From a phage, in the sequence record NC_101835.1: 64,000 bases of DNA; one strand, written 5' to 3'. This document shows positions 20,184 through 35,000 of this stretch, piece by piece. The position numbers and the translations under genes are program-made. The notes beneath the pieces are model-generated. The model searched no databases. It was not told where the DNA came from and saw only the letters and a list, made by a program, of their open reading frames with translations. Position 1 is the stretch's first letter, and each line of letters begins with the position of its first letter.

Positions 20184-20212
20184 TGACACATTACAGCTCC
20201 AGTGATAATATC
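20184..20212 (+). promoter_or_regulatory. sigma70-like promoter (TTGACA-17-TAATAT)
   Basis: Consensus -35/-10 about 20 nt upstream of the 20232 ORF. Confidence 0.5.
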
Positions 20213-20231
20213 CACACATCATTTGGAGAAT

Positions 20232-20333: not shown

Positions 20334-20542
20334 TCAACACACATGCATCTGAAGAGACATCCGAAGGAGTGACCATATGTCCCTTGGATGAGCCAGTTAA
20401 AGAGGAAAACTTAGATTCTGAGGACTCTTCATCTTCGTCCCAGACAGATCCTGAGGCTGATGACCTGACGTGGGAGGACATCGTAGATATCTGGTTCTCT
20501 ATTATGCCTGAGCACGAAGAGTTCAGAGGTGGTAGACTATGA
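20330..20542 (+). CDS. small acidic protein
   Basis: In-frame internal start of track ORF 20129-20542, whose 5' part overlaps the promoter. Confidence 0.4.
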   Translation: MINTHASEETSEGVTICPLDEPVKEENLDSEDSSSSSQTDPEADDLTWEDIVDIWFSIMPEHEEFRGGRL

Positions 20543-20661
20543 AGCACCGAGCCCACACAGGTTCCTCATGCTAAAGCATGGCCTGAAGAGGCAAACGTGC
20601 ATAATTCCTGCGCATTTGGACGTATAATCCTGTTCACACTCTCATTTCCAGAGGAGATTTT

Positions 20662-20877
20662 ATGAAGATAGAGATATTTGGTGGAGCTGACAACACTCGT
20701 GGCCTGATTTACCTTGAATTCGATGAATCATACCTGCCAGAGGTGTTAAATATAGACTCTGTTGCTGAGGCTTTGGGAGTAAACCCTAAAGAACTCCACT
20801 CTTGTGCTGAGATCGATGGTTGGGAAGAGACCATGAACATTGATTTCAGTGAAGTAGAGGATGAACCGCTGGACTGA
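20662..20877 (+). CDS. small acidic protein
   Basis: GAGGAG RBS; MKIEIFGG...SEVEDEPLD. Confidence 0.55.
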   Translation: MKIEIFGGADNTRGLIYLEFDESYLPEVLNIDSVAEALGVNPKELHSCAEIDGWEETMNIDFSEVEDEPLD

Positions 20878-21079
20878 CACACAATTAGCTGCCCGGCTAA
20901 AGTGCTGGAAGCACCTATAACACATCTTTCAACTAAATTTCCTACCACCACAATCACTTACCTCCCACACATGACTGTTTGCTTGTTTAGTGAGCAGTCA
21001 TGCCTTGACATTCTTGCCTATCCTGATAAAATTAAGTTCTTCTCTTTTCTTTTACCGAGTAATTCGGGTTTTCTGTTCT

Positions 21080-21300
21080 CTTCGGTTTGAAGGGGTATGG
21101 AGATACACCTGAGTGAACAGGGTGAACAACCGAACCTTTGGCTATGGCATTAGCATGGCGAAGCGGACGGGTGACGAAAGAGGGGCCGGAGGACACCAGT
21201 CACTGCCATATGATATATGGGTGATAACCTGAAGAGTCTGAATAAGTGTTTAAGTACCAGTCAGAGGAAAAGGTGAATGGTAGCCGAAGGGGGGAGGGGG
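21080..21300. other. GC-rich structured island in ORF-free region (possible ncRNA)
   Basis: Several short hairpins with GAAA/GCGAAG-type loops, ends in GGGGGGAGGGGGGG; no ORF. Confidence 0.3.
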
Positions 21301-22439
21301 GTTTCTTGTATCTTTAATTTGTATATTATGTATACACTTGTAAACCAATCTAATCTGAATCTGTTTACCACACAAAGCGGATAGAGACAAATATTGCCTA
21401 TTAAACTTGAATTATTTATAGAAAATACCACAACACTACTTAAGTCTTTGATTTTACACACAAATCCTGCAGATATTCACCCTCCATATTTAACATACTT
21501 GTAACATATTCCATACTCTACCTGCCCGATCAATTCACCCAACTACATCCCCATATTTTCCCTGTCTGTACTACCCCTGCCCCGCCGGGAGTCCCATCAT
21601 ATCTGGCTTTCCAGCAAATATCACACCCACAAATATCATTGCCTGAAGAGGGTTTCATCCCATAATACCTGCCTTACCTGAAGAGCGCTTCATACACCAC
21701 GTAAATTTTTTAATTGACCTCCCCCTGCCCCGCCGGAGAGGTTGGCTTTTCCCACACAGACCTGAAGAGTCAGCCAGAAATATCTGAATAGGCCCAATTC
21801 TACCACGATTTTGACCTGACCTACAGGGAGGCCCGAAGGGTCTAGCTTTCAGCTAGAGTCCTTGCAGGACCTACAGGAGCGCTGCCAGGCGGACGGAATG
21901 GGAATACTTCTCATTCTTATAACAATTCTCAAATATCGAGGCAGTGAGAGAAATTAATAGGCCAGGCCGTTCACACAGTGGCACAACATTTGCAACCTAT
22001 TTTGTGTGGATGAATGAGAATACCTATCATTATGAGAATAGTTATCATTACTGGCAATTTAACATAATACCCATTATGCGCACCACTGGCGATCCATACA
22101 GGGATTGATAACATGAGTTACTGTTTACGCATATAACAATTATATTTATTACTATTTGTGTTGGGTATAGTTAGCAGCCGATAGATTAGATATTGACCTG
22201 CAGACTTCCAACTGTCTAGACGTCTAAACGCCCACACAGCAAGGATTATACATACACAACTGAATGTAAACAGGGCCGCAAAAATGCTACCATACCAGAT
22301 TGTAAATTTTTCATGCAGCACTTGACAAAGAGGAGGAAAACTTGTCTGACATACTGTGACATAATATGACATAATAGTGACACACTGGGCATACTCAACA
22401 CTGGATACAATAACAATTGTTACTATTGCATGCCTCACT

Positions 22440-22750
22440 GTTCACGCATAGATGATAAGCCATGCCATTCGTTTGCATGACAATAATTAACTTGTTTACA
22501 ATCTTTCACTGGCTATGCCAGGTGACCTTTGGTCACCCCTTCGGGTGTTTCTATGACATAATATAAAAGCAGGGCAACTATTAGAAGATCTATAGTTGCC
22601 TTGCTTGTTATGTCATGATTAACTAAATACAAGGCAACTATGATCTGATTAATAGATTGCAGACAAACTATCACGGGGGTGATGGTTACTGCTTTTATAT
22701 TATGTCGCGACTCCGTCGCGCCATGCCATTCGTTTGCATAGTTGCCTTAT
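22440..22750. repeat. nested palindrome and direct-repeat complex
   Basis: GCCATGCCATTCGTTTGCAT twice (22459, 22720); GGCAACTAT/ATAGTTGCC arms four times; GACATAATATAAAAGC inverted at 22555 and 22691. Confidence 0.6.
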
Positions 22751-23351
22751 TGTTACAGGTAAAATAATTACATTATTAATTATTTCTTATCTTTCTCTTA
22801 GTCATCTAATGATTCCAGTCAGTATAGTAATGTACAGTAAACATTAGACGACTAAATATTTCTCTGTTTATGATAACTCACCGTGACAATTTCGGACTGT
22901 TTACGAAAAATGTTGACACCTAAGCTGATTTATGTTATGCAGTTTACACGAATAATTATTTTATGCAGGTATTGACTATTCCGTTATTCTGTGGTTGGAA
23001 TAAATACTTTGCAGGCTATAGAATGGCGTGCGTACATGAATTCTGAGATCTGGCGGCTATAGTTATACTCGATTTTTCACGTAGAACACGCTTTTTAGTT
23101 TGTGTAAGTGTATGACTTATAAGAATTTTTACTTGTTGACAAGATATTGAAGATCTGCATCAGGTTAAAATTTGTGCAATAGCTGCATTACGTGCAATTT
23201 TGGAAGGGAAAACGGGTAAAAATAGCCCTGCTACCACACAATGAAAAGTTATGCAATAGTTATTTTACATGTATATTTGTACAGTGTGTGGGGTTGATGG
23301 CTCGTCAATTATTCCACTTGCCAGGTAGGGCCGTTTATGGTAGGAGAAGAG

Positions 23352-23381
23352 CAGACAAAAAGAAAGGGGCCTAAGCCCCTT
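23352..23381 (-). terminator. rho-independent terminator closing the leftward array
   Basis: On minus strand AGGGGC-tta-GGCCCCT followed by TTCTTTTTGTC, just after the stop of 23400-23819. Confidence 0.6.
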
Positions 23382-23399
23382 GATAATTCAGTTAAAAAA

Positions 23400-23819
23400 T
23401 TATAATGATTCGTATATTTCAAAAATCCGATTTGCCAGGTCGTTACGGTAGCGGAATTTTTCCTCACGTTTGATCATAAGATCTTTATAGCCGTACTCTT
23501 TAAGCACTTCATTAACTTTATGGCGGCATACTTTCATATTATCCTGCGCGTCACCAATAAATCTGTTGCTATGGTGCATGGCTTTAATTTCTTCTTCCAG
23601 GACCAGGGCAACTATGCGGACCGGATCAAGCTGATAGGCGGTAACATCCATGCGGCATTGTAAACGGCTTTTTACGTCTGCCACCGGATATACTGCAACC
23701 TCTTCCCCGTCAACATTGACAATAATTAGTTTACCATCGATTTCGAATCCTTTCGCCGCCGGACCGTGACAAAAAGCGTTATCAAAGCTATATGCCGGAT
23801 TATTAGATTTAATGTTCAT
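23400..23819 (-). CDS. hypothetical protein
   Basis: Own promoter (TTGACA-17-TATATT on minus strand near 23890-23862); RBS AAGAGG. Confidence 0.55.
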   Translation of the reverse strand: MNIKSNNPAYSFDNAFCHGPAAKGFEIDGKLIIVNVDGEEVAVYPVADVKSRLQCRMDVTAYQLDPVRIVALVLEEEIKAMHHSNRFIGDAQDNMKVCRHKVNEVLKEYGYKDLMIKREEKFRYRNDLANRIFEIYESL

Positions 23820-23963
23820 GGTGTTTTTACCTCTTAGTTAATTTTCTTACAACTTCCCTTCAAAAAAGAATATAGCAAAACTGCCGATCCCTGTCAACCA
23901 GGGATAGCATAATTTTTATGTGATCAAGGGGCTTTATTGCCCCTGACCATGTAACTTGTTGTA

Positions 23964-24227
23964 TTATTTGTTGCTCATCCAGTTTTCCCAAGCTGCCTGA
24001 TAATCTGCCTCACTACGGCGGATCTCTTCTTGCTCTTCAAGGCGGATCTCTTCTTCCAGGTACCCCAAGATGTCAGCCTTTTTAGTCTGGCGCAGCATCC
24101 AGTCATCTTTTTTGCGAGTGAAGATCTTATAAGCTTTCTCGCAAACCTCTTTTTTGCTACCTTTCTGGACTTCAAGAACACGATAAGCCATATATTGAAC
24201 TAATTTGAGCTGATCAAGACGTTTCAT
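23964..24227 (-). CDS. hypothetical protein
   Basis: Leader hairpin GGGCC-aaaa-GGCCC (24260-24273) then cacaaagaggtaaacatc-ATG. Confidence 0.55.
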   Translation of the reverse strand: MKRLDQLKLVQYMAYRVLEVQKGSKKEVCEKAYKIFTRKKDDWMLRQTKKADILGYLEEEIRLEEQEEIRRSEADYQAAWENWMSNK

Positions 24228-24287
24228 GATGTTTACCTCTTTGTGCGGTTCTGATTAGTGGGCCTTTTGGCCCGTGTCATTATCTTA

Positions 24288-24560
24288 TTACTTATGGCGG
24301 CAGAATTCAAGCGTTTTTAATTGATAATCTTCCTCAGCTTGGAGTACGACCGCCTCGATCATTTCGTTGGCATTGTTAAAGCCATAACCTTTAGCGAACT
24401 CATCCGCGCCACCTTCGTGATCATGTTCTGCGTTCATCGCTTCCACAAAATGGAATTCCAAATTGTTGAGGTAGGGGCTTGATGTTCCGTCCTCTTTTTC
24501 GATGAGATCCCAAATAGCATTAAAACGTGATTCGACTTCTTGATTAATCCAGCTTGACAT
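24288..24560 (-). CDS. hypothetical acidic protein
   Basis: Leader hairpin GGGCA-aaag-TGCCC then RBS. Confidence 0.55.
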   Translation of the reverse strand: MSSWINQEVESRFNAIWDLIEKEDGTSSPYLNNLEFHFVEAMNAEHDHEGGADEFAKGYGFNNANEMIEAVVLQAEEDYQLKTLEFCRHK

Positions 24561-24668
24561 AGTGTTTTCCTCTCTCCTGGTTGTTGTGTGGGCACTTTTG
24601 CCCCTTCAAGATAAATGTTACCCCACCCCATGGCAGATGTCAACGGTTTTTATAGTTCTTATATGACA

Positions 24669-24711
24669 GGCAGGCCCGGTGATTGTCTCCCCCCGTCGCC
24701 AGGTGCCTGCC
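24669..24711 (-). other. conserved 43-nt stem-loop element, copy 1
   Basis: GGCAGGC...GCCTGCC imperfect hairpin just after a TTGCAA-16-TATACT promoter; related copies at 33658 and 33809. Confidence 0.5.
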
Positions 24712-24771
24712 GTGAAACAAGTATAACAAAAAACAGGACCATTGCAAGCCCTGTTTTGTAGTTTATAAATA

Positions 24772-24963
24772 TTATATTTTTTCGCCTATGTAGTCCGGTC
24801 GGTTTTTCTCTGTCATGCGCTTTAGCAATTCTTGCATGTTGCTTATGGCTTGTAGTGTATCCCCTTCCAGGCTTGAATCGACATAATCAGGATCGTCTAT
24901 GACCTTTCTATGATTATGATAACGCAGTACCGCCAATACCTTTCTGACTTGTTCGATATTCAT
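24772..24963 (-). CDS. hypothetical protein
   Basis: Track ORF. Confidence 0.5.
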   Translation of the reverse strand: MNIEQVRKVLAVLRYHNHRKVIDDPDYVDSSLEGDTLQAISNMQELLKRMTEKNRPDYIGEKI

Positions 24964-24975
24964 TTTTACCGCTCT

Positions 24976-25110
24976 TTAAAACAAGGTGCCAACCGTTTCC
25001 AATAGATCACTGACTGCCAGGACAATACCGATCAGCACATATCTAACCATAAGGGGAAAGAGCGCCAATATTGCCACCACAATCCCCAAGGTGATAATTA
25101 TCTTTCTCAT
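24976..25110 (-). CDS. small membrane peptide (about 44 aa)
   Basis: MRKIIITLGIVVAILALFPL...; below track cut-off. Confidence 0.3.
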   Translation of the reverse strand: MRKIIITLGIVVAILALFPLMVRYVLIGIVLAVSDLLETVGTLF

Positions 25111-25112
25111 GG

Positions 25113-25406
25113 TTAACGGTTCACGTAAGTTTTCCCGTTCACGGTTATGGGCAGATCCTCCAGGTCTGGATCTTCCTTAAGGTCGCGAGCAAGCTCACCG
25201 CACCGGATACCCTCGAATCCGTAGTACTCTGTTGTGCCGTCCTTAAAAGTTTTAGCGGCAAGGCATAAGCGATAAGTAACCCCGATTTGATTGACGGCAT
25301 GAATATCCGTTAGATTAACCTCTTTTGCCAGCTCTTTAGCCATTACAGGCGCATTAAGTCCAACAACCAGGGCAACCACTGCGATCATCTTTTTCATTGT
25401 GTCCAT
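25113..25406 (-). CDS. secreted protein (signal peptide)
   Basis: MKKMIAVVALVVGLNAPVMA signal-peptide-like N-terminus. Confidence 0.55.
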   Translation of the reverse strand: MDTMKKMIAVVALVVGLNAPVMAKELAKEVNLTDIHAVNQIGVTYRLCLAAKTFKDGTTEYYGFEGIRCGELARDLKEDPDLEDLPITVNGKTYVNR

Positions 25407-25488
25407 CCTCTTTCTGCTACGTTTAAGGCGGCGGTAACCGCCTGTTTATGCTTTGTTGGTTAATTTTCGGGTATAGGTATAAATTAAA

Positions 25489-25704
25489 CTATGCTGTACG
25501 CTCAACTATAACAACGGCTTGAGGGATCTCACCTTCAACCACTATCAAGGCTTTTTTCTGCGTGATAGATATCTTTACCCGCTTCAGCGTGGCGGTAAAA
25601 TCTTTCATTTCGTCACGTGGTGTTTTAGTGCAATACCAGATCTCAGGCTTGCCGATCTGTAAGTTGCGTAAAAATTCTGTTTTGCCTGTTTTGTTAGTGA
25701 TCAT
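25489..25704 (-). CDS. hypothetical protein
   Basis: Track ORF. Confidence 0.45.
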   Translation of the reverse strand: MITNKTGKTEFLRNLQIGKPEIWYCTKTPRDEMKDFTATLKRVKISITQKKALIVVEGEIPQAVVIVERTA

Positions 25705-25713
25705 TTGGCAACC

Positions 25714-25818
25714 TCACCCGATACCGTTGGAAGACAAGATCGCATTAGCCATGGTTGCAATCAGGCCAATACCCAGGGCAATAACCAAGATCACTGCATC
25801 GATTAATTTCTGTTTCAT
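25714..25818 (-). CDS. small membrane peptide (34 aa)
   Basis: MKQKLIDAVILVIALGIGLIATMANAILSSNGIG; leader hairpin 25854-25873. Confidence 0.3.
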   Translation of the reverse strand: MKQKLIDAVILVIALGIGLIATMANAILSSNGIG

Positions 25819-25895
25819 GGTGTTTATTCTCTTCTGTTAGTAACCTTATTCATGGGGCCGCTACCACAGCCCCAAGGTAAGGCAGCTATGTGCTT

Positions 25896-26141
25896 TTAGT
25901 GTTTCATTCCAACCATCGCGGCACGGATCGCCGTAGTGCTGTACTTGAAGCCGTCCGGGGTCTTATCTTGTCCGGTTAGCTCCAGAAAAAGCATCATATC
26001 CCGCGCCGCATCATTACGATTAGCATTGGCGTTAATAAAGCCTTGGGCCAACCGGTACAATGACTCATCGTTATTAATCCAAAGGCTTACATTCCAATGA
26101 GTTTTGTTTTTGTAACCGTTATAACCTTTATTGCTTTTCAT
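25896..26141 (-). CDS. hypothetical protein
   Basis: Leader hairpin GGTGG...CCACC then AAGAGG RBS. Confidence 0.55.
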   Translation of the reverse strand: MKSNKGYNGYKNKTHWNVSLWINNDESLYRLAQGFINANANRNDAARDMMLFLELTGQDKTPDGFKYSTTAIRAAMVGMKH

Positions 26142-26232
26142 GGTGTTTACCTCTTCTTTGTTCCAGGTGGCGGATCATTCTACCACCTTATGTATTATGC
26201 TTTGTTAGATGGTTGTTTGTTGTCAAACTATT

Positions 26233-26412
26233 TTACCGATAATCATCATATGCTTTATTTACCTGGCGAATATAACATTCAAAAGCCAAATCAATAGATT
26301 TATATTCACGGATATACTCACCATAGGAAACCACATACATTTCTATAGCTTCCTCATATGCGAGGAGAATAGAATCTAAGCCTACGATCTCAGTCTTTGC
26401 AATAATAGCCAT
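26233..26412 (-). CDS. hypothetical protein (59 aa)
   Basis: MAIIAKTEIVGLDSILLAYEEAIEMYV...; just below track cut-off. Confidence 0.35.
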   Translation of the reverse strand: MAIIAKTEIVGLDSILLAYEEAIEMYVVSYGEYIREYKSIDLAFECYIRQVNKAYDDYR

Positions 26413-26487
26413 GATTTTTTATCCTCTTTGTGGTTGGTGGGGTTCGTTGCCCCTTTGATTTATATATTACAGTCTTATATGGTCATG

Positions 26488-26721
26488 TCAACTATTTTCA
26501 AAAAATTTTTCTGCTGTGATATTCTTCCCGGTAGGGTTCGCTACTTTCAAAATTTTATCATGCACTGGACGCCCAAAAGAATAAGCGCCGTACACAGTAA
26601 ACCAATAATCGCCGTCAGGTTGTACTATTACTGCCGCATATGGTACGCCTTTTTCGTTTTTGCTGACAAAATAGATCACGTTGCCATTAATAGCCTCGGC
26701 GCGTTTAATTTGTTCCATCAT
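26488..26721 (-). CDS. hypothetical protein
   Basis: Track ORF. Confidence 0.5.
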   Translation of the reverse strand: MMEQIKRAEAINGNVIYFVSKNEKGVPYAAVIVQPDGDYWFTVYGAYSFGRPVHDKILKVANPTGKNITAEKFFENS

Positions 26722-26777
26722 GATGATTTGCCTCTCTTTATTTTCATAATTGGGGGGCCTTTTCGGCCCCGCCAGGT

Positions 26778-27062
26778 TTATTTATTGATAGCGTGCAGCG
26801 GGAAAGGTACGCCAGGTTGATAGATAACCTTTACAACCTCATCAGGACAAAAGAAGTTGCAGAACTCACCGCAATAGGCCTCATCCTCTTTCAACTCTTC
26901 ATCAACATACTCAAAAAAGTAGTCGATGCTTGGATAATCTTGACCAGGGTTATAATCAACCATAGTGAGGACCAGTTCAAGATCATTGCGGATGATATGC
27001 ATACCAGCTTTTAAATACTTCGCTTCCATTTTTACTACATCGCCAGCGGTAACAATAGCCAT
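26778..27062 (-). CDS. hypothetical protein
   Basis: Internal ATG (MAIVTAGD) with GGAG RBS; track ORF extends to 27128. Confidence 0.5.
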   Translation of the reverse strand: MAIVTAGDVVKMEAKYLKAGMHIIRNDLELVLTMVDYNPGQDYPSIDYFFEYVDEELKEDEAYCGEFCNFFCPDEVVKVIYQPGVPFPLHAINK

Positions 27063-27293
27063 GGTTTTAACTCCTGTTTCTGTTAATGATTGGAGGCATA
27101 ACCCCCCTCGACAACTCTTATTATCCATATTGTAGGGCTTGATGCAAGTACTTCTTTAAAAAAAAAAATTTTTTAAGTGCCTTGGAGGCCGCTGTAACGC
27201 CAAAATAATAAAGGCCATGCAACCGCATAGCCTTTATGTGATTATATCGCTGCAGGCCCTGCTAGGGGCCTTATTTTGCATCATTTGCCGGAA

Positions 27294-27602
27294 CTATACA
27301 GAGAAAACATCGTTCACAATAGCGATCACAATGCCGCCCACCTTGTCACGGTCAACAATGCACAAATCACCATAGATCATGTGGTAGTCTGGATGATCTT
27401 TCACGGAATAGTCAATGAGCGTTTTCTTGTCGTCCAGCTTTGTAACTTCCATTCTCATAACGATATGAGAATCATCAAAGGCATTATTCCGAAAAGTCAT
27501 AGCCTGACCACCAGGGCACCCAGTGATCTCCACTTCCACACCGTCTACGATCTGACCATCAAAGAAATAAAGATTATTAGCCAGGATAAACATGTTTATC
27601 AC
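27294..27602 (-). CDS. hypothetical protein
   Basis: Directly downstream of conserved 45-bp element copy 1; RBS AAGGAG. Confidence 0.55.
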   Translation of the reverse strand: MINMFILANNLYFFDGQIVDGVEVEITGCPGGQAMTFRNNAFDDSHIVMRMEVTKLDDKKTLIDYSVKDHPDYHMIYGDLCIVDRDKVGGIVIAIVNDVFSV

Positions 27603-27639
27603 TCCTTGTTAACTGCGTGTTATTTTACCACGATTAAAA

Positions 27640-27685
27640 TTTACTTTACTGATGGCCCTGGCGTCAAGGCCATCTAAAAATAAAT
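27640..27685 (-). promoter_or_regulatory. conserved 45-bp promoter/hairpin element, copy 1
   Basis: Minus strand TTTATTTTTAGATGGCC-TTGACGCCAG-GGCCATC...TAAATT: 7-bp stem flanking a -35-like TTGACG, then a -10-like hexamer. Confidence 0.45.
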
Positions 27686-27886
27686 TTACAGGCCTACAAT
27701 CTCTTTGATTCGTTTAACTGCTGCCTCAGCGCCTTGGGGGTAGAAATTATGGTAACCGATCACGCGAGTGATACTAATCGCAGTTTGATGATCTTCATAA
27801 TAGCCCTTGAAGATTTCTTGACCGTCAATCAGCACGGCAATTTTTTCTTCTTTTTTGAAGTTAATAACGCGGATATTGTTGCTCAT
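27686..27886 (-). CDS. hypothetical protein
   Basis: Leader hairpin GGGGA...TCCCC then AAGGAG RBS. Confidence 0.55.
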   Translation of the reverse strand: MSNNIRVINFKKEEKIAVLIDGQEIFKGYYEDHQTAISITRVIGYHNFYPQGAEAAVKRIKEIVGL

Positions 27887-28027
27887 TTTGTTTCTCCTTT
27901 CTGGTTTTTGTGTTGGTGGGGATTAGCTCCCCGTTGATTATTATTATCCATATTTCGGACCGGATTGCAACACCCCGGAAGAAAAATTTTTTGAAAAAGT
28001 TAGGCCCCCAGGGATCGGGGGCCGTTA

Positions 28028-28147
28028 TCAGTTACTTACAGCGATAAAATACATCCCTACGCCTAACAATATTTCAAGGGCGATGATCTCAAGCCATACC
28101 ATAACCCGGCGCACCTTATCGGTGCGGGGCTTATCCTTGGTTGTCAT
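28028..28147 (-). CDS. small membrane peptide (39 aa)
   Basis: MTTKDKPRTDKVRRVMVWLEIIALEILLGVGMYFIAVSN; below track cut-off. Confidence 0.3.
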   Translation of the reverse strand: MTTKDKPRTDKVRRVMVWLEIIALEILLGVGMYFIAVSN

Positions 28148-28407
28148 CGTCTCCCCCTTTCATCCTGGTAGTAGTGACGTGGTTTACAATGGCCCCCAGG
28201 AGTACCATCACCACGCACATCACAAGAAAAATTATCTCTGTCGTTGTTCGATCCATTGTTATAAAATTCCTTAAGATCAGGCCTGAAAATAAAGCGTTCG
28301 TTATTGAATCCATCACGCCAGGCGGCTGGCTTCAAATCTTCATCAAAGGGATTAATTAACGTGGTATTATTTAAACGGCTGGCCCACATATTTTCTATTC
28401 CTCTCAA
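28144..28407 (-). CDS. hypothetical protein (start uncertain)
   Basis: Track ORF; overlaps neighbouring ORF in another frame. Confidence 0.3.
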   Translation of the reverse strand: MRGIENMWASRLNNTTLINPFDEDLKPAAWRDGFNNERFIFRPDLKEFYNNGSNNDRDNFSCDVRGDGTPGGHCKPRHYYQDERGRR

Positions 28408-28738
28408 ATAGGCGATCCGCCTCAGTTAAACAAATCTCATGGGCGTGATCTCTGGTTTTAGCTTCATCGAAAACCTGTTGTGCAAGGCTGCAGCGTAGGG
28501 AGACTGGAAGATCACTATAATAGGCGTTGACAAATGTTTGCGCGTCATACAGGTCGGAAAATACTTTACCCTTTCTATTATCGCCTTTGTCAACAATTGC
28601 AAGGATAACAAGTACAATAGTTGCAACCACCCCCAGGAAAATAGATATAATAAACCATAAAAAGGCGGATCTACCCATCTTGCCAGCGATCCAGGCGTTA
28701 AACAAGGCAACTAATACGGCCAAAATAATAAATTCCAT
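28367..28738 (-). CDS. membrane protein (2 TM)
   Basis: Internal start MEFIILAVLVALF...; two hydrophobic helices. Confidence 0.5.
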   Translation of the reverse strand: MEFIILAVLVALFNAWIAGKMGRSAFLWFIISIFLGVVATIVLVILAIVDKGDNRKGKVFSDLYDAQTFVNAYYSDLPVSLRCSLAQQVFDEAKTRDHAHEICLTEADRLFERNRKYVGQPFK

Positions 28739-28802
28739 TCTATGTACCTCTTTTGCAGTTCTGTTTAACAATAAGGCGGCAAATATGCCGCCTGTTACCT
28801 GA

Positions 28803-29183
28803 TTAAAAATTATCGCCGTAAATCTTTCCGCTTTCTGCCCACACCACCACGCGGGGCATACTATCCCACACGTCTTGTTTTAGATTGAGCGCGTGCAATT
28901 CTTCGGTGGTGCCCATACCAGGCACGGGCTGATTGTATACTGCAAAACGACCACCCGCATAGTCATAGGCCAGAGTTAAATCACACTGGATCATCTTTTT
29001 GATCATGGCATTAAGCATGGCGTTAGCCGCATACTGATCACGTTTTAAAGGCAACTCTTTGATTAGTTTGCGATAGTTTTCAATGTGATCGCACACTGTT
29101 TCACGTGGAAGATCTTTCATATCCTCGCGAAAGGTAACCAGGTTAAACATGACGGTGTCAATAGCTTTAGTAGTGTTTTTCAT
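28803..29183 (-). CDS. hypothetical protein
   Basis: Internal ATG at 29183 preceded by AAGAGG and leader hairpin. Confidence 0.55.
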   Translation of the reverse strand: MKNTTKAIDTVMFNLVTFREDMKDLPRETVCDHIENYRKLIKELPLKRDQYAANAMLNAMIKKMIQCDLTLAYDYAGGRFAVYNQPVPGMGTTEELHALNLKQDVWDSMPRVVVWAESGKIYGDNF

Positions 29184-29207
29184 GATGTTTTCCTCTTTGT
29201 TTTGTGT

Positions 29208-29228
29208 GGGGGGCAAACGTCTTGCCCC
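29208..29228 (-). promoter_or_regulatory. 5' leader stem-loop (example of a recurring class)
   Basis: GGGGCAA-gacg-TTGCCCC about 8 nt after a TTGCAA-16-TATATT promoter and 25 nt before the ATG. Confidence 0.5.
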
Positions 29229-29273
29229 TTGAGTTTTAATATAGCAGGTTTTTAGATTATTGCAACACTTTAT

Positions 29274-29897
29274 TTATGAAAAACTCATCTCTCCATATTC
29301 ATCCACATCAAACCGCCAATCATTGGCCTCGATAAGGCCGATCAGGTTTTCGGTAGTAAATTGTTCAAGATAAGCTTGCTCCAGGTCTACGTAAACCTTG
29401 CGGGATAGTTCCCGTACGTTCTCGGTGATCAACTCTTCCAGCTCTTCAACCTTACTTTCTTGCTTGGCTGTCAGGTCTAGCCATGTAGTATCGATGTACC
29501 CGCTTACAGTGTTTTCGTGACTATAGCGGCTATATGGATCACGCTCAACACTTGCGGATAGCTCGCCATCGTGCATTGTGCCGAACAAGTGACGAATTGA
29601 GCGGAATTTAGTCAGAGACTTGACTTTACGCAAGAATTTTTCTAAATCCACGTTTTCCGCACTGATTGACGCGCCGTCGCCCTGGCACCAAAAGCCGGAC
29701 CAATGTACCTTGGTATCTTCAAGGCCATACTCTGGAAAGATATGTTCTTTATAGTCTTCAATTACACTTTCTGCAAAAAAGTTATCCCCGCTGTGTTCTT
29801 CTCTTTCGCGGACCATTTCAATAGCTTTTTCTTTTTGTTCATCGGTCAGCACGTCGAAAGATAAATTGTAACCTGTGGTAATGTTAACGGTGGTCAT
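29274..29897 (-). CDS. hypothetical protein (207 aa)
   Basis: Leader hairpin GGCGGGAA...TTCCCGCC at about 29925-29945. Confidence 0.55.
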   Translation of the reverse strand: MTTVNITTGYNLSFDVLTDEQKEKAIEMVREREEHSGDNFFAESVIEDYKEHIFPEYGLEDTKVHWSGFWCQGDGASISAENVDLEKFLRKVKSLTKFRSIRHLFGTMHDGELSASVERDPYSRYSHENTVSGYIDTTWLDLTAKQESKVEELEELITENVRELSRKVYVDLEQAYLEQFTTENLIGLIEANDWRFDVDEYGEMSFS

Positions 29898-29971
29898 GAT
29901 ATTTTCTCCTATTTTCTTTGTTAGTGGCGGGAAGTTTTCCCGCCTGTGTGTTTAAGTATACTTATCGAGAT

Positions 29972-30232
29972 TTACTTGTCAACACTATTTTTTAAATTAT
30001 TGTGGCGCAAAATGCTTAAAATCTCTTCAACGTCATCAACACGGCGGCAATTTTTAAACGCTACCAATTGCCCCATGATTTTAATCACTGGACGGCCTTG
30101 CCAGTGCCCCTGGAGAAAGCGCGCCTTGACTTTATCGGTGGAACTATCACGCCACCAAATGGCCTTGTTATTGCAGTAGTAAAAATTATTCAGGACAACA
30201 TCAACTTTATCAAAATTTTTTAATTTACGCAT
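29972..30232 (-). CDS. hypothetical protein
   Basis: Track ORF. Confidence 0.5.
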   Translation of the reverse strand: MRKLKNFDKVDVVLNNFYYCNNKAIWWRDSSTDKVKARFLQGHWQGRPVIKIMGQLVAFKNCRRVDDVEEILSILRHNNLKNSVDK

Positions 30233-30478
30233 GGCGTTTACTCCTTCCTTCTTGCTTTGATGTGGTTAGTATATCCGGACTATTCCAAGGTGTCAAGCTT
30301 TAAATAAAATCACTGTCAATGATATTTTTTAACACCATAAAACGGCCCTGGGTGATGTTTTCAGGTTAATAAAGGGGATTGCATAGGTAGGGGCTTTTGT
30401 GGCGTTTGTGGGGCCAACCAGGGGCGCTATTCGTAGGATAGAAATAAAAAACCCCGCACAATGGCGGGGCGTTGGTTG

Positions 30479-30676
30479 CTATTTGTCTTTGTGGCGGTAT
30501 CGTTCCGCTTGTCGTTCACGTTCCAAAAGCAGGCTGGGTAATTTGCGATCATAGTGATTTCGCCAGATCTTCCCAAATCTTTTCGGCTTATTCAGTTTAT
30601 TGTTACGCTGGCGTCGTTCCGGCAGCTCTTCGGAATCATGAGATCGCTTTACAATCTTCTCAAAATTAATCTTCAT
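30479..30676 (-). CDS. small basic protein
   Basis: Internal start MKINFEK; Arg/Lys-rich. Confidence 0.45.
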   Translation of the reverse strand: MKINFEKIVKRSHDSEELPERRQRNNKLNKPKRFGKIWRNHYDRKLPSLLLERERQAERYRHKDK

Positions 30677-31019
30677 ATATTCCCCCCTTGCTAACTTCAA
30701 TATTGGCCTGAATAGCCCGGATACGGCGCTTTATAACCTCCTGATCCTTGCAATCATATCCCCAAAAGTCTACGATTTTTGCGCCTCCAGCCTTTAGGCG
30801 GTATAGTGTTTCTTGCATCTTGTAAGCCGGGATCGGTCGCGGTGTTACCTGGTCGCCCTTCTCATTCTTGTACTTGATAATGTAGTCTTCATTGTCGTTG
30901 AATACCCAAAATGGGTATTCTGTGAGCGCGTTGCTCTCTTTTTCGTTTTTAGATTGGATCTTGTTTACAATTAAAGCCGTAGCAATAGCGCCAATAATAA
31001 AACTTGCCCCGCTGATCAT
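30666..31019 (-). CDS. membrane-anchored protein
   Basis: Internal start MISGASFIIGAIATALIV (TM). Confidence 0.5.
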   Translation of the reverse strand: MISGASFIIGAIATALIVNKIQSKNEKESNALTEYPFWVFNDNEDYIIKYKNEKGDQVTPRPIPAYKMQETLYRLKAGGAKIVDFWGYDCKDQEVIKRRIRAIQANIEVSKGGIYED

Positions 31020-31094
31020 GTACTTTCTCCTTTCATTGTGTTGATAAACTATCTTTATAGATGGCCCTGCTACCAGGACCACCGAAAAAACAGC

Positions 31095-31340
31095 TTATTT
31101 GACGATACCGACAAAACAGATCCCGCCTTCCCCTATATAGGCAATATCGGTAATTTTATAATTTGTCAAGATCCGCGTGTTCAGATCATTAATAAAATCG
31201 GTCATCGCGTTGGTGTGGTTGTCTTCCGTGTCTAAGGCATAATCCCAGGTGTAAACCTTTTTACGTCCGAAGCCTTTTACCATGATACGGGCGCTTTTGG
31301 TGTTGGTAGGGGCATAATATTTGGTGATTAGTGCTGCCAT
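31095..31340 (-). CDS. hypothetical protein
   Basis: Downstream of conserved 45-bp element copy 2; RBS GAGGAG. Confidence 0.55.
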   Translation of the reverse strand: MAALITKYYAPTNTKSARIMVKGFGRKKVYTWDYALDTEDNHTNAMTDFINDLNTRILTNYKITDIAYIGEGGICFVGIVK

Positions 31341-31382
31341 GGTTTTAACTCCTCTGAATTAGTTCAGTGTTAACAGTATAAA

Positions 31383-31427
31383 GTTTACTTTATTGATGGC
31401 CCTGAAGTCAAGGCCATCTAAAAATAA
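31383..31427 (-). promoter_or_regulatory. conserved 45-bp promoter/hairpin element, copy 2
   Basis: GTTTACTTTATTGATGGCCCTGAAGTCAAGGCCATCTAAAAATAA, near-identical to copy 3. Confidence 0.45.
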
Positions 31428-31429
31428 TC

Positions 31430-31771
31430 TTACTCGTTTTCTTCCAGCTCCGCAAGCTCTTCTTTTGCTTCTTCTAACTCTGTCTGTAGTTCCTGGTATT
31501 CTTCATCGTCCTCAATATCCAGGCTGTCGATGTAGTCGCTAAATCCGCAGCGGTAAGCGATAGGATCTAGCTCCTTGAGGATACGCGACGGAAGAAAAGA
31601 AATGTTTCCGATCATAATTTCGCCGTAGATCTCGTCTAACCATTCATCATAGTTTTCGTCGTACTTGTCCTCGTCGATTTCAAAGTTATCGATCTTGTTC
31701 TCAAGGTCTGCGATCTGTTTTTTCAGCGCGGCGATCTGCATAGCTTTTTCTGCGGCGGTCATAGTAGTCAT
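31430..31771 (-). CDS. hypothetical acidic coiled-coil protein
   Basis: Leader hairpin GGGAA-gtt-TTCCC then RBS. Confidence 0.55.
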   Translation of the reverse strand: MTTMTAAEKAMQIAALKKQIADLENKIDNFEIDEDKYDENYDEWLDEIYGEIMIGNISFLPSRILKELDPIAYRCGFSDYIDSLDIEDDEEYQELQTELEEAKEELAELEENE

Positions 31772-31850
31772 GGTGTTTTCTCCTTTTGTGTGCTCTGGGA
31801 AGTTTTCCCGTTTACGTGTTTAAGTATATCGATCTAAGTTAGTTTGTCAA

Positions 31851-31970
31851 TTAAAAATTTAAGAAAAATTTTGCAAAACTGTTAGCGCTACTCATTAACA
31901 TTTGCGCCAGGATGTAACCGACAACGCAAACGATAATAGTTACCTTTGTGTATTGGCGTGTAGTGCTCAT
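31851..31970 (-). CDS. small membrane peptide (39 aa)
   Basis: MSTTRQYTKVTIIVCVVGYILAQMLM...; follows element copy 3. Confidence 0.35.
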   Translation of the reverse strand: MSTTRQYTKVTIIVCVVGYILAQMLMSSANSFAKFFLNF

Positions 31971-32004
31971 CTTAAAGCCCCCTTTTTTCGCTTAGTTGAG
32001 ATTA

Positions 32005-32049
32005 GTTTACTTTATTGATGGCCCTGAAGTCAAGGCCATCTAAAAATAA
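32005..32049 (-). promoter_or_regulatory. conserved 45-bp promoter/hairpin element, copy 3
   Basis: Same sequence as copy 2; directly after the stop of 32052-32546. Confidence 0.45.
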
Positions 32050-32051
32050 AC

Positions 32052-32447
32052 TTAGTAAGTTTTCAGTACTTTACCGTCCAACCTGTCAAGCTGGATCTCG
32101 ATAGCTGCAGAAAACCTATTGTAAACCACATCGCCCATAGAATCCAACCAGTCTATGACATTATACACCTGCTCTTTATTCTTGCAAGTCCGGATCCGTT
32201 TCATTACGTAAGACGGATCAATATTAGTGCTCCCGTTGTTGTGGTCATGCGCCTGGCCTGCTGCACTGGTTATAGATTTTACAACCACCTGAAAGGGCTT
32301 TAAGGTGCCTTTTGCGTTCATCTCACGCGCTTTTGCGGCGCGGTTGTTATATGTTACACAACGGCGGCAAATGTTGACTAAATGCATGTCAATAATTTTT
32401 TCATCGTTTGCCAGTTCGTTCATGATGCGGCGTACGTTCTTATTCAT
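32052..32447 (-). CDS. hypothetical protein
   Basis: Internal start MNKNVRRIMNE after leader hairpin GGCGGGAA-aca-TTCCCGCC. Confidence 0.5.
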   Translation of the reverse strand: MNKNVRRIMNELANDEKIIDMHLVNICRRCVTYNNRAAKAREMNAKGTLKPFQVVVKSITSAAGQAHDHNNGSTNIDPSYVMKRIRTCKNKEQVYNVIDWLDSMGDVVYNRFSAAIEIQLDRLDGKVLKTY

Positions 32448-32530
32448 GATCTTTTTTCCTTTGTGCTGGCGGGAAACATTCCCGCCTTTTGTGTCTAGTT
32501 TACTTAAATTTTGCAGCGTGTCAATGATTT

Positions 32531-32929
32531 TTATTCGTGGGCGCATGTCACAATGTGCTTTTTATAGCCCAGGTGGTCAGCAAGTGCCGACAAAAACTCT
32601 TCTTCGTAGATCCAGCCGTCGGCAGTGATCCCCATAGCATTTAATGCGCTCTCAAGTGCTGCGTTAGCTTTATCGTAACCGTGACCGCTAGCCTTGCCGC
32701 CAGTATAACCGTACTTATTGTTCTTGTTGTCGTGAATCCAAAACACGCAGTAGTGAGTGTTACCACTGGCGGCGGCATAATACCGGATCTCAGCTACTTC
32801 GTGCAAATTATTGTCATCGTCCAGGCCCACCAGATTATAAGCCTTGTAAAATCCACGATCACGGCGGCAGTTCTTGACATCAGAAAAAGAAAAGTCGGCA
32901 TTATCAAAATTAAAGGTTGTGGTTTTCAT
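32531..32929 (-). CDS. hypothetical protein
   Basis: Track ORF; RBS AAGAGG. Confidence 0.55.
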   Translation of the reverse strand: MKTTTFNFDNADFSFSDVKNCRRDRGFYKAYNLVGLDDDNNLHEVAEIRYYAAASGNTHYCVFWIHDNKNNKYGYTGGKASGHGYDKANAALESALNAMGITADGWIYEEEFLSALADHLGYKKHIVTCAHE

Positions 32930-32993
32930 GATTTTATCCTCTTAGTGTCTTTTGTGATTTCAGTATATTTTGTGTCAGACTACATGTCAATAT

Positions 32994-33191
32994 TTATTTT
33001 TTATTAAACCAGTGGTTGATCTGACCTTTTGTCAGGGCGCAACGATTAAGCTGTTGCAGGGTATAGCTATGACCGCGACGAAATTTATAAAGGCCTTGCC
33101 CGTTGTTGATGGTTACATCCACCCGGCAAATCACTTGATTGGTGACCACCTGGCGAGTGTTGCGACGTACTTTAATTCCGTAGGCGTTCAT
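32994..33191 (-). CDS. small basic protein
   Basis: Internal start MNAYGIKVRRNTRQ; RBS AGAGAGGA. Confidence 0.45.
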   Translation of the reverse strand: MNAYGIKVRRNTRQVVTNQVICRVDVTINNGQGLYKFRRGHSYTLQQLNRCALTKGQINHWFNKK

Positions 33192-33277
33192 GATTTTTTT
33201 ATCCTCTCTGTTAATTGGTGTGGTGTTGTTCACCTTGCGAGGATAAGAATAACAAGAACTGTCCGAGCTGTCAACCA

Positions 33278-33454
33278 TTAGTTAAAATTATTTTTTGGGT
33301 AGAATTCTCCAGCCGCCGCCCCTGCCAGGTTAACCATCATTTTTTCGTACTCTTCTTTATGTTCCAACGCTCCCGCCATAGCCTTTTCAACCAGGGCGAT
33401 AGCCTCAGCGTCATTAATAGCTACATTTTCCAGGGGGATCATATTACCTTCCAT
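33278..33454 (-). CDS. hypothetical protein (58 aa)
   Basis: MEGNMIPLENVAINDAEAIALVEKAMAGALEHKEEYEKMM...; RBS GAGGAGG. Confidence 0.35.
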   Translation of the reverse strand: MEGNMIPLENVAINDAEAIALVEKAMAGALEHKEEYEKMMVNLAGAAAGEFYPKNNFN

Positions 33455-33657
33455 TTTTGTACCTCCTCTTCAATTGTTACCTATCCTATAGCATAGGCCC
33501 ACCAGGTTTACAAGCCTTCATTCTCCCCTACCTGGTCAGTTAGGTCCTGCCAGGCTGGCCCCGCCAGGTTGCAGCGGTTAGCGCATCAGGTTAGAAAAAT
33601 TTTTTGAAAAGTGTTGACAGCGGCCCCGCCAGGTGGCACAATATACCTATCGAAAGG

Positions 33658-33693
33658 ACGGCAGGCACTGGTGACGGGGGAGACAACCACCGG
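33658..33693 (+). other. conserved stem-loop element, copy 2
   Basis: GGCAGGCACTGGTGACGGGGGAGACAACCACCGGGG, homologous to the reverse complement of 24669-24711. Confidence 0.45.
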
Positions 33694-33808
33694 GGATGGG
33701 CGCTGCATAAAATGAGAACGATTATCATTATCATTTAAAAATTTATGCAAAAAATCCTTGCTTTCTTTGTCCTGTGTGATACTATAATAACAAGCCGGGG
33801 CAACAGGG

Positions 33809-33832
33809 GCCGGGAGACAATCACCGGGCCTG
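33809..33832 (+). other. conserved stem-loop element, partial copy 3
   Basis: CGGGAGACAATCACCGGGCCTGCC matches the 3' half of the 24669 element. Confidence 0.45.
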
Positions 33833-33949
33833 CCCGTTATTCTGCAAACGAGAATGATTATCATTCAAAATTCTAAATGAGAACTCCTCGCATTTAATAA
33901 ATTTAATTAGCACGCTAATTACCTACCGTGACAATTATATATAAAATAA

Positions 33950-34440
33950 TACCTCCTAAAATATTTCCATATACAAATTTTAAAAATCCATTTCTGAAAA
34001 CGAAAAATCGATTTCGTCCCCAAAAATTTCAGGTCGAGATCCGGAACGATTTCCAGAAAATCCGATTTAGAAAACGAAAAACAGATCGAGTACTGAGAAA
34101 TTTATCGAGAAAAATTTTCAGAAAATCCAAGCCATGAAATGAAAAGTAGATCGAGTACTGGAAAAATTGTACCGCAACCCACTGATAGTGATGGGTTTTC
34201 CGTCATAAATCACTAAGAGTGAGTGGAGAAAGGTATGGTGGAGAGGTGTGTATGTGTGGGAAATCTGTAATGGTGGCCTGAAATATGGTGCAAACGGCTA
34301 GATAGATTGGCACAATTTTCCGCGCCTGTGTTGAAAAAATCCATTTTAGTTTTCGATCCATTTTCTGATTTTCTAAGGATTTTAAAATATCCTGGTAGGT
34401 AAAATATCAAAAGGAGGAAATCCATTTTAGAAATCCCCCT
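33950..34440. repeat. AT-rich iteron region
   Basis: GAAAATCC(A/G)(A/T)TT five times, AGATCGAGTACTG twice (34083, 34148), palindrome TAATTAGC-ac-GCTAATTA near 33903. Confidence 0.55.
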
Positions 34441-34470
34441 TATACTTGATATGCCAGGAATTTTCAAGTA

Positions 34471-34800
34471 TCAGTTGTCTTTGTTTTTAGGTTTGTACAT
34501 GCGCAGAGGTATGGTCTTTGTAACATTCCATTTCCTCAACCCTTCCCAGCTCCAGTTGTGGGCGTGGTATCCGGTTATGCATGCACTACTGGAGTGATCG
34601 TAAGCATAAGAGAACGCTAAGCGCACCAGGTGGGGCCAGTCCTTCCATGGTTGTGGACCGTAAGCTTTTCTCCAACACCGACACAAACTAAATGTCTCAA
34701 GGATAGGAAGGATAACAAACCCATACACTGTCACCAAAATAGTCAGTGCAATGATTGTCAGGAACACATACCCTGCAGTTGAAATGATGATCTCTGTCAT
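34471..34800 (-). CDS. membrane protein
   Basis: N-terminal TM; ATGA coupling. Confidence 0.5.
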   Translation of the reverse strand: MTEIIISTAGYVFLTIIALTILVTVYGFVILPILETFSLCRCWRKAYGPQPWKDWPHLVRLAFSYAYDHSSSACITGYHAHNWSWEGLRKWNVTKTIPLRMYKPKNKDN

Positions 34801-35000
34801 TTGTCGTCCCCTTTCTTACGGATATAAATGTGAGAACCTGCCTGTATATAAATTTCTCGACCATCTTCTGCGAAGATGTGGAATACACGGTCACCTTCGT
34901 ACTCAATACGAGATATCTTCATAGTGGTCTTCCCACCGGGGATACGGATCTCATCACCCACAGCAATGTTCCATGCGGATTTAAGCTTAAACATCAGCAC
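34797..35000 (-). CDS. hypothetical protein
   Basis: Track ORF. Confidence 0.5.
   Translation of the reverse strand: MLMFKLKSAWNIAVGDEIRIPGGKTTMKISRIEYEGDRVFHIFAEDGREIYIQAGSHIYIRKKGDDK

Follow-up and report, generated by a model that had tools for sequence, protein, structure and literature searches.

In this study, we describe a family of 18-bp boxes in the genome of an rV5-like phage and consider which protein might bind them. The stretch of DNA analysed (sequence record NC_101835.1; 64,000 nucleotides, hereafter the window) belongs to a myovirus of the genus Vequintavirus, with about 96% megablast identity to RudolfGeigy, D1 and rV5. The boxes resemble the Fur box, the textbook operator of bacterial iron genes, and occur here in the direct terminal repeat (DTR) of a phage genome (region 1) and in its most conserved non-coding module (region 2). 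Judging from sequence comparison, it is highly probable that they are functional protein-binding sites. Host Fur is the best single candidate for the protein that binds them, an identification that we put forward tentatively, at a little less than an even chance. The Fur box itself is well known; what appears to be new is the occurrence of boxes of this type in conserved, cis-acting phage DNA, in a setting common to different phage families.

An 18-bp box in two non-coding regions

An earlier sequence-only reading of the window had listed four motifs. All four are present, all on the plus strand, and each can be extended to an 18-mer; together with a fifth, weaker box, they are the following:

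22015-22032, plus strand: box 1, TGAGAATACCTATCATTA, that is TGAGAAT-ACC-TATCATTA; 128 bp from the physical left end of the genome; 14/19 matches to the Fur 19-mer
22033-22050, plus strand: box 2, TGAGAATAGTTATCATTA, that is TGAGAAT-AGT-TATCATTA; an exact head-to-tail 18-bp tandem with box 1
33713-33730 (the 18-mer; the feature extends to 33732), plus strand: box 3, TGAGAACGATTATCATTA, that is TGAGAAC-GAT-TATCATTATC; at about +65 from promoter P_A (see below)
33849-33866, plus strand: box 4, CGAGAATGATTATCATTC, that is CGAGAAT-GAT-TATCATTC; at about +58 from promoter P_B (see below)
33877-33894, plus strand: box 5, weak, ATGAGAACTCCTCGCATT, that is ATGAGAAC-TCC-TCGCATT; a 3-mismatch match to the 18-mer

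With at most one mismatch, the pattern GAGAAYNNNTATCATT has 4 matches in the window against 0.26 expected, and none of 100 shuffles reached 4. In the complete 137-kb genome of the close relative D1, which we assembled from three fetches, the only good matches are the four orthologous sites; since this genome holds no other good copy, the motif is confined genome-wide to the two regions. The half-sites are arranged as inverted heptads in a 7-1-7 architecture (TGAGAAT/TGATAAT-n-ATTMTCA), with extra hexamers in a 6-bp register, and box 4 holds the perfect palindrome GAATGAT-T-ATCATTC. The flanks of boxes 1-2 have no similarity to those of boxes 3-4 outside the box itself. Box 5 is the positional orthologue of the second boxes in ESCO13, BIS47 and CR3.

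We considered, and rejected, the possibility that the box forms an RNA or cruciform hairpin: the mirror positions 4 and 12 are mismatched (G.A, U.C) in most phages and pair only in CR3 and GEC_vB_MG. A scan of IMG/VR with the 18-mer pattern returned mostly single matches in unrelated contigs, roughly as many as chance alone would give for a pattern with 14-15 specified bases. An exact motif overlapping the start of an open reading frame (ORF) in the Certrevirus F4M1E was likewise judged to be a chance match, about 9 such matches being expected in 2.3 Gb.

Both regions had also been described as free of ORFs. This holds, in a mechanical sense, for region 1, which is the gap separating two converging gene clusters, between their 3' ends (the genes of one run rightward and end at about 20.5 kb; those of the other run leftward, starting at about 60.5 kb and ending at 23.4 kb). 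It does not hold for region 2 (about 33.5-34.2 kb), a 760-bp gap within the leftward cluster of small genes, where a 92-aa ORF (33586-33864, minus strand) runs over sites 3 and 4. This ORF corresponds to 'ORF 198' of rV5, is recorded as a hypothetical protein elsewhere, and overlaps boxes 3-4 together with the two GC-rich elements and the two promoters described below. It has no Shine-Dalgarno sequence or ribosome-binding site, and no Pfam match was found for it or for the four other ORFs that flank or overlap the two regions. It is probably not a gene, and its annotation an artefact.

The boxes score as high as authentic Fur operators

Likeness to Fur sites was measured as the number of matches to the 19-bp consensus, calibrated on footprinted operators. 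Site 3, to which the sequence-only reading had given 16/19, does match and scores slightly higher than claimed, at 17/19 (33714-33732, minus strand, GATAATGATAATCGTTCTC). Site 4 reaches 15/19 on the minus strand (TTGAATGATAATCATTCTC), and sites 1-2 contain three overlapping 14/19 matches (22016, 22028 and 22034, the first lying 12 bp from the second). Strong matches have 14/19 neighbours at an offset of exactly 6 bp (33708/33714/33720 and 33844/33850), and the same offset separates 22028 from 22034. Clusters of Fur sites have been described as overlapping sites spaced 3 or 6 bp apart (PMC2189734), and the clustering of the phage boxes follows this spacing.

Across the window, 12 positions score at least 14/19, where 200 dinucleotide shuffles gave 2.28 and at most 6. 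Such sites are separated by exactly 6 bp in 4 pairs, against 0.055 in the shuffles. When the regions were shuffled locally, the DTR had 3 against 0.042 and region 2 had 5 against 0.049, with none of 2000 shuffles reaching the observed count. The sequence-only reading had proposed a comparison with shuffled sequence as a check, and the motif is enriched over both global and local shuffles; because both fall far below the observed counts, AT-richness does not explain the sites.

For the calibration, the coordinates of footprinted operators were taken from Table 3 of PMC2189734, and 46 kb of E. coli K-12 (580-626 kb) were scored identically. The footprinted operators fepA-fes, fepD-entS, fepB and entC reach 13, 16, 15 and 15 of 19, respectively, and all six positions of at least 15/19 in the 46 kb fall in footprinted Fur operators or in a cos-proximal cluster of the DLP12 prophage. 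With scores of 14-17/19 (17 for site 3, 15 for site 4 and 14 for sites 1-2) against 13-16/19, the phage boxes are as near to the Fur consensus as authentic E. coli operators, and their earlier description as Fur-box-like is borne out in this respect.

The phage boxes consistently carry GAGAAT in place of the textbook GATAAT. The aerobactin operator GATAATGAGAATCATTATTGACATAATTGTTATTATTTTAC, present at 100% identity in 791 plasmids (and 21-61 bp upstream of iucA in the one plasmid inspected), reads TTTCTCATTGATAATGAGAATCATTATT with its upstream flank and is thus built from the phage boxes' own half-site, TGAGAAT; the aerobactin iucA region has been used as a footprinted Fur site (PMC2189734). 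Similarly, AATGAGAAGCATTATT in the fepB operator closely resembles AATGAGAACGATTATC of phage site 3. Since TGAGAAT or GAGAAT occurs in the footprinted operators of both iucA and fepB, this hexamer is no argument against Fur. These two operators (for iucA, the primary operator of pColV-K30) share with the phage boxes the AATGAGAAT, ATTCTCATT and GATAAT units, the 7-1-7 inverted arrangement and the overlap of sites at 6 bp. Unlike them, the phage boxes have no conserved promoter overlap and no iron-related gene nearby, and they sit in a terminal repeat and downstream of outward-facing promoters. The consensus sequences of ArgR, PurR, CRP, IHF, DnaA, Zur, MetJ, SlmA and CpxR, considered as leads only, do not appear to fit the box.

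A further inverted pair of the box half-site, ATTCTCAT-AACGAT-ATGAGAAT, was seen at 27449-27475; it has an iucA-like arrangement, lies within coding DNA and scores below 13/19 to Fur.

Boxes 1 and 2 lie in the direct terminal repeat

Region 1 is the direct terminal repeat of the genome, a point that the sequence-only reading had missed. Its features are:

21888-22346, no strand: DTR, about 459 bp, non-coding, defined by record ends, the Gotham repeat annotation and conservation
21899-21931, minus strand: degenerate GAGAAT-type hexamers at the left terminus (GAGAAT TGTTAT AAGAAT GAGAAG, in a 6-bp register)

Several GenBank records start at window position 21888 or end at about 22346. The bov11CS3 record starts at 21888 and ends at 21887, and position 1 of Gotham, for which the packaging start was experimentally determined, is also 21888. 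The Gotham record annotates a repeat region at 1-459, in which the tandem boxes lie at about 128-163, and terminal repeats of 458-459 bp have been given for Gotham, EdH4 and HdK5 (PMC7471380; PMC6563267). Taken together, the record ends and the Gotham repeat place the DTR at 21888-22346 and boxes 1-2 at 128-163 bp from the physical left end. These two boxes are present at both ends of each virion DNA; boxes 3-5 lie 11.8 kb away. In the phages Alma and magaca, boxes 1-2 are annotated just as an 18-bp tandem repeat, and the rV5 paper labels the area of region 1 'non-coding'.

The hexamers at 21899-21931 comprise 3-mismatch matches to the 18-mer and one exact ATGAGAA (at 21908); they are nearly invariant in relatives and score below 13/19 to the Fur consensus. 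In contrast to the conserved interior of the DTR, a 15-bp patch directly upstream of box 1 (22000-22014) is hypervariable. The same contrast holds just past the right boundary of the DTR, where GACATAAT-type repeats of variable length occupy 22346-22400.

The octamer GGCGGGGC is present in 7 copies (21579, 21727, 26766, 30463, 33558, 33623 and 45002) against 0.61 expected. Two of these copies lie just outside the DTR, where they form part of longer repeats (CCCTGCCCCGCCGG…GGCTTTTCC). A further two fall in region 2, and the spacer of P_A contains one of this second pair.

Boxes 3 to 5 belong to a module with outward-facing promoters

Region 2 starts 11.8 kb (8.6% of the genome) from the physical left end, with about 35 small genes in between. 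In addition to boxes 3-5, it contains:

33614-33642, plus strand: promoter P_A, TTGACA-17-CACAAT with a TG extension; predicted start at about 33649; 10/12 plus TG in the scan; kept in 13 relatives
33678-33694, plus strand: conserved GC-rich element A, GGGAGACAACCACCGGG; paralogous to the element B loop region
33758-33785, plus strand: promoter P_B, TTGCTT (33758-63)-16-TACTAT (33780-85) with a TGn extension; predicted start at about 33792
33798-33835, plus strand: GC-rich, hairpin-like element B, with the conserved loop GAGACAAWCAC; fold z = -2.2
33965-34168, no strand: AT-rich iteron-like array of three units of about 65 bp (direct repeat family D1), with GATCGAGTAC cores at 34084 and 34149 and GAAAAATTTT palindromes

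The unit of the module is duplicated in the window, as P_A, element A and box 3 and then as P_B, element B and box 4 (repeat families D2 and D5), so that boxes 3-4 are part of a diverged tandem duplication of about 132 bp. Element A and the loop region of element B, which make up direct repeat family D5, are 94% identical at a spacing of 134 bp. Element A is invariant in relatives except for one substitution in CarlMeissner, and its fold is not significantly better than that of shuffles (z = -1.3). As single sequences, the GC-rich elements do not give significantly stable folds (z from -0.9 to -2.2). In the alignment fold of element B, 10 pairs form, of which 2 show compensatory changes; the consensus energy, -4.5 kcal/mol, is weak, and covariation support for the putative hairpin is modest. 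Rfam gave no relevant match in window 20000-35000, in the homologous loci of other phages or in the injection stop signal (iss) of phage T5.

P_B falls under the threshold of a simple promoter scan; the TTG of its -35 and the T, A and final T of its -10 are invariant in five genera, and its spacer sequence varies freely. P_A and P_B, both of the sigma70 type, are directed against the coding direction; neither has an ORF to serve, and beyond them lies the iteron-like array. The exact sequence GATCGAGWAC has two matches in the window, both in this array. In four other genera, too, the boxes are followed by an equivalent array, with cores that read GATCGAGAAC or GATCGAGACC. The replication origin could not be located in the rV5 paper, and we propose the array as a candidate replication origin that would be fed by the outward promoters P_A and P_B.

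Conservation within and across genera

Within the genus, we aligned 13-15 relatives per region; an IMG/VR search through the flanking proteins yielded only 3 and 2 loci, and GenBank records were used in its place. The core of box 1 is invariant in 14 of 15 relatives, and the cores TGAGAAY and TATCATT are invariant throughout, bar one substitution in rV5. The central NNN is variable (ACC, ACA, AGT, TGT, CAT, GAT and GGT), box 3 changing from GAT to GGT in 5 relatives. Over 10 relatives, mean identity is 0.93-0.95 in the DTR against 0.57-0.84 in its immediate flanks, and in region 2 (33600-33900) it is 0.96-0.98, which equals the best coding stretches and exceeds the immediate flanks.

In the most divergent relative, the IMG/VR contig L127, the tandem pair persists amid strong divergence around boxes 1-2, as TGATAAT-TAC-TCTCATTG followed by TGATAAT-AGT-TCTCATTA (TGATAAT-NNN-TCTCATT). 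Both copies combine a change of G4 to T with a change of A12 to C, two positions that mirror each other in the 7-1-7 reading. In this one contig, the double change would strengthen one half-site and weaken the other, as may be expected for a symmetric dimer site under stabilising selection. No match to the swapped variant was found among GenBank phages.

Across genera, a sensitive search with 33560-34130 gave matches of 71-88% to about 33749-33906 in the non-coding DNA of Phapecoctavirus (which belongs to another subfamily), Mydovirus, Seunavirus and Certrevirus. The relatives that have the module infect Klebsiella, Proteus, Salmonella, Cronobacter, Pectobacterium, Serratia and Enterobacter. 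Four loci from the other genera were fetched and aligned with the window, and they share one plus-strand order: a promoter, a GC-rich hairpin-like element, a box, 1-3 further boxes, and AT-rich repeats of about 65-80 bp with GATCGAG(A/T)AC cores. Box 4 (GAGAATGATT[A/C]TCATT) forms the longest stretch without variation when the Vequintavirus, Phapecoctavirus, Mydovirus, Certrevirus and Seunavirus modules are aligned, and in CR3 and GEC_vB_MG it is a perfect palindrome, AATGAGAAT-G-ATTCTCATT.

Two further elements were seen in the loci of the four other genera. Upstream of the box module, a promoter is followed by a near-invariant GC-rich segment of about 85 nt (…GCCACCCCACGGCGWAAAGGCGGGGCTAAC…GGTCGGAAGGTGGATCGCCGGTAG; L151 360-470, L152 320-410, L153 325-415 and L154 335-425). 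This segment matches no Rfam family, lacks a counterpart in the window and is a candidate non-coding RNA. In addition, a direct repeat, GTAAA-N5-GTAAA, lies just upstream of the -35 of the conserved promoter (L151 about 483-500, L152 about 424-441, L153 about 427-444 and L154 about 438-455). It looks like a box for CpxR or a response regulator and is missing from the rV5-like window.

Similar boxes in T5, lambda and their relatives

Weak BLAST matches of the site 3 segment in T5-like phages led to box arrays in SP01 and T5. The T5-like phage SP01 (L144, 497-700) has a seven-unit array (e.g., AATGAGAATGATAATAATTCTCATTTAAAAAGCGG and AATGATAATCATTATCATTTAAAAA) with three 16/19 Fur matches. The array of T5 (NC_005859, L148; 9555-9720) lies inside the annotated iss (9140-10149), adjoins a major nick and surrounds the shear site at about 9618; in the right terminal repeat of T5, the array is about 500 bp from the right end. 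The iss of T5 and T5-like phages holds 5-7 AATGAGAAT/ATTCTCATT boxes, each followed by TTTAAAAA, and several of them score 15-16/19 to Fur. Five of the six ATGAGAA heptamers in the first 10.6 kb of T5 fall within the iss array, and over 30 nt there is hardly any difference between a T5 box and the box TTAAATGCGAATCATTATCATTTGCATTTC of ESCO13. Davison's comparative study described the T5 iss repeats as conserved and of unknown function, without mention of Fur, and our literature search found no paper linking Fur to the box regions of rV5-like phages or of the T5 iss.

The T5 iss and region 2 are alike in several respects: both are non-coding, are more conserved than the neighbouring genes, and combine AATGAGAAT-type boxes (five to six in T5, with GAAAAATTTTT palindromes nearby) with further repeats, at 7.9% and 8.6% of the genome, respectively. 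The T5 array differs in lying inside a 10-kb terminal repeat and in having paired DnaA boxes, and T5 depends on A1 and A2. In the module and the window there are no pairs of DnaA boxes, just scattered 1-mismatch matches, and the T5 pre-early proteins, including A1 and the DNA-binding A2, have no detectable homologue in the rV5-like genome (tblastn E > 0.1). Membership of region 2 in the T5-type iss class thus fails on two defining features, the DnaA-box pairs and A1/A2. With no T5 pre-early homologue in the rV5-like genome, a host factor is also the simplest common explanation for the boxes.

In lambda (NC_001416, L146), the sequence TGATAATCATTATCA at 48452-48466 is a perfect 7-1-7 Fur-type box beside cosQ, 37-51 bp from the right end. 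A cluster homologous to the lambda box lies upstream of nohD in the DLP12 prophage (K-12 NC_000913.3, 580589-580613, L145). This nohB cluster has been predicted at 25.3 bits, and Fur shifts the homologous cos-type site upstream of nohA in the Qin prophage in vitro (PMC2189734). Like the DTR boxes, the lambdoid cos-proximal site is a Fur-type box in non-coding phage DNA, near the packaging cut and without an assigned regulatory target. Lambda differs in having a single textbook TGATAAT-C-ATTATCA, in being a cos phage and not a DTR phage, and in having no second cluster in its genome. The IHF site I1 of lambda cosB is a known host-factor site in a phage packaging region and offers, by analogy, a case of a host DNA-binding protein acting as an architectural element near a phage end. 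The phage boxes are unlike an IHF site, none of them fitting WATCAANNNNTTR by eye, and a packaging role for them would be an extrapolation.

Which protein binds the boxes?

Most Fur clusters of E. coli, about 83%, lie over a strong promoter (PMC2189734). If the boxes were classical operators, phage expression would be repressed in iron-rich and derepressed in iron-scarce hosts, and, in this window, sequences that could serve such a role do exist: on the minus strand, TTGCCA-17-CATAAT (10/12) lies over boxes 1-2, and TTGCAT-18-GATAAT, found by reading the sequence, lies over box 3, all of these boxes being as close to the consensus as real operators. We rejected both of these minus-strand promoters, obtained by eye and by scan, as not conserved. 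The first is TTGCCC-17-CACAAT in most relatives and would transcribe off the genome end or into gene-free DNA, and the -10 of the second becomes GATAAC in five relatives. For region 2, no promoter was predicted by the rV5 authors or by PhagePromoter on Gotham, and the boxes are found 58-65 bp downstream of the supported promoters, P_A and P_B, which point away from genes and serve no ORF. Classical iron-dependent repression through an overlapping operator is unsupported, and we hold this explanation to be improbable. The suggestion of the sequence-only reading that the phage uses host iron status is unsupported for the same reason.

The absence of a conserved promoter over any box, where a classical Fur operator would overlap one, is also one of several points that weigh against Fur itself as the binder. 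In about 20 box instances, the mirror positions are (G,A), (G,C) or (T,C), and the pair that would suit Fur best, (T,A), does not occur among them. No instance, not even the swapped L127 variant, lacks a G-type half, and both halves are TGAGAAT in two genera; the actual binder may thus favour G at a position where T stands in the Fur consensus. Sites 1-2 score just 14/19 and lack the ATC triplet of the classical register. Moreover, both non-coding islands are conserved as wholes, so that within the genus the boxes do not stand out by their conservation. An alternative binder would be a DNA-binding protein of the phage, or some host protein that is not Fur, with AATGAGAAT as its optimal half-site; the likeness of the boxes to the Fur box would then be partial and incidental. 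Conserved over Vequintavirinae and Stephanstirmvirinae, this protein would control both the module (early transcription or origin firing) and the DTR. Such a protein is consistent with the preference for the TGAGAAT heptad, which culminates in the perfect palindrome of CR3 and GEC_vB_MG, with degenerate copies at the DTR terminus that are GAGAAT-type yet unlike the Fur consensus, and with the co-occurrence of module and boxes with a shared phage gene set in two subfamilies. However, the TGAGAAT heptad is found in the footprinted Fur operators of iucA and fepB as well, and no candidate DNA-binding gene was identified next to either region, the five flanking or overlapping ORFs being without Pfam match. 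Similar arrays also occur in T5-like siphoviruses, which have no detectable pre-early protein in common with rV5-like phages. On these grounds we regard this combined alternative as possible but rather unlikely, and the phage factor offered by the sequence-only reading, in particular, loses ground to a host protein given the same boxes in T5-like phages and lambda and the lack of T5 pre-early homologues.

Small terminase subunits typically recognise repeated sites near the cut, as in lambda cosB and SPP1 pac. Boxes 1-2 could likewise be a packaging signal for the small terminase subunit or an accessory factor, sites 3-5 being unrelated look-alikes within an origin or transcription module. The exact tandem at 128-163 bp from the physical end, inside the DTR, would suit such a signal, as would the Fur-type box beside cosQ in lambda and DLP12 and the T5 array near its right end. 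Nevertheless, the same 18-bp motif in the same orientation, 11.7 kb away, is the most conserved element of a module unrelated to the terminus, and the lack of other copies in a complete relative argues that one recognition sequence links both regions. The terminase sites of lambda (R sites), in addition, differ in sequence from the box. We therefore think a dedicated packaging signal quite unlikely. It is less credible still, to the point of being very nearly discounted, that the boxes are a chance product of AT-rich non-coding DNA or a duplicated segment without binding function. The tandem duplication of boxes 1-2 and the diverged duplication of about 132 bp that holds boxes 3-4 do reduce the number of independent occurrences. 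Composition is nonetheless excluded by the local and global shuffles, the flanks are dissimilar beyond the box, and the box persists in five genera and in T5-like phages amid otherwise unalignable sequence.

Fur is the best candidate because of the operator-like scores, the 6-bp clustering, the likeness to iucA, the recurrence of the boxes in unrelated phages that share hosts, and the shift by Fur of a lambdoid cos-type site. In our proposed mechanism, a dimeric protein with Fur-type specificity, most likely host Fur, would bind the boxes. Holo-Fur, abundant and pre-existing in the cell, could load on the arrays during entry or replication of the DNA. Within the module, it would sit about 60 bp downstream of P_A and P_B, as a roadblock or architectural element for non-coding transcripts that would run into the AT-rich iteron array, the candidate replication origin. 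In the terminal repeat, it might mark or bend the DNA near the end that is handled by the terminase or the ejection machinery. The positions of the boxes make a roadblock or architectural role seem more likely than iron-dependent repression.

A wider and quite doubtful extension of this proposal would be that AATGAGAAT-type Fur boxes are a common cis element of DNA-end and entry regions (lambda cos, T5 iss, the rV5-like DTR and the module at 8.6%), and that the phages use host Fur as a stopper or an architectural protein in ejection, packaging or the firing of an origin, rather than to regulate transcription by iron. As a corollary, rV5-like phages might have a T5-like staged entry in which region 2 is the stop site and the roughly 35 small genes to its left are pre-early; by analogy with T5, we give staged DNA entry in these phages a low probability.

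The boxes are found in widespread coliphages that are candidates for therapy, where they would point to a previously unnoticed dependency on a host factor, and the same boxes in the T5 iss and beside lambda cosQ strengthen this lead. The identity of the binder would also bear on the roles of the non-coding regions of rV5-like phages and on a question that is 50 years old, that of the protein bound by the conserved repeats of the T5 iss. If Fur binds, the iron status of the host in the gut could influence how well these phages perform, a point of relevance to phage therapy.

Related records

In the course of this work, we noticed that about 20 'Campylobacter phage' records (GenBank MG065635-MG065690, UNVERIFIED and unannotated; L131-L138) are near-identical Vequintavirus genomes, and the taxonomy lines of these records give Vequintavirus.

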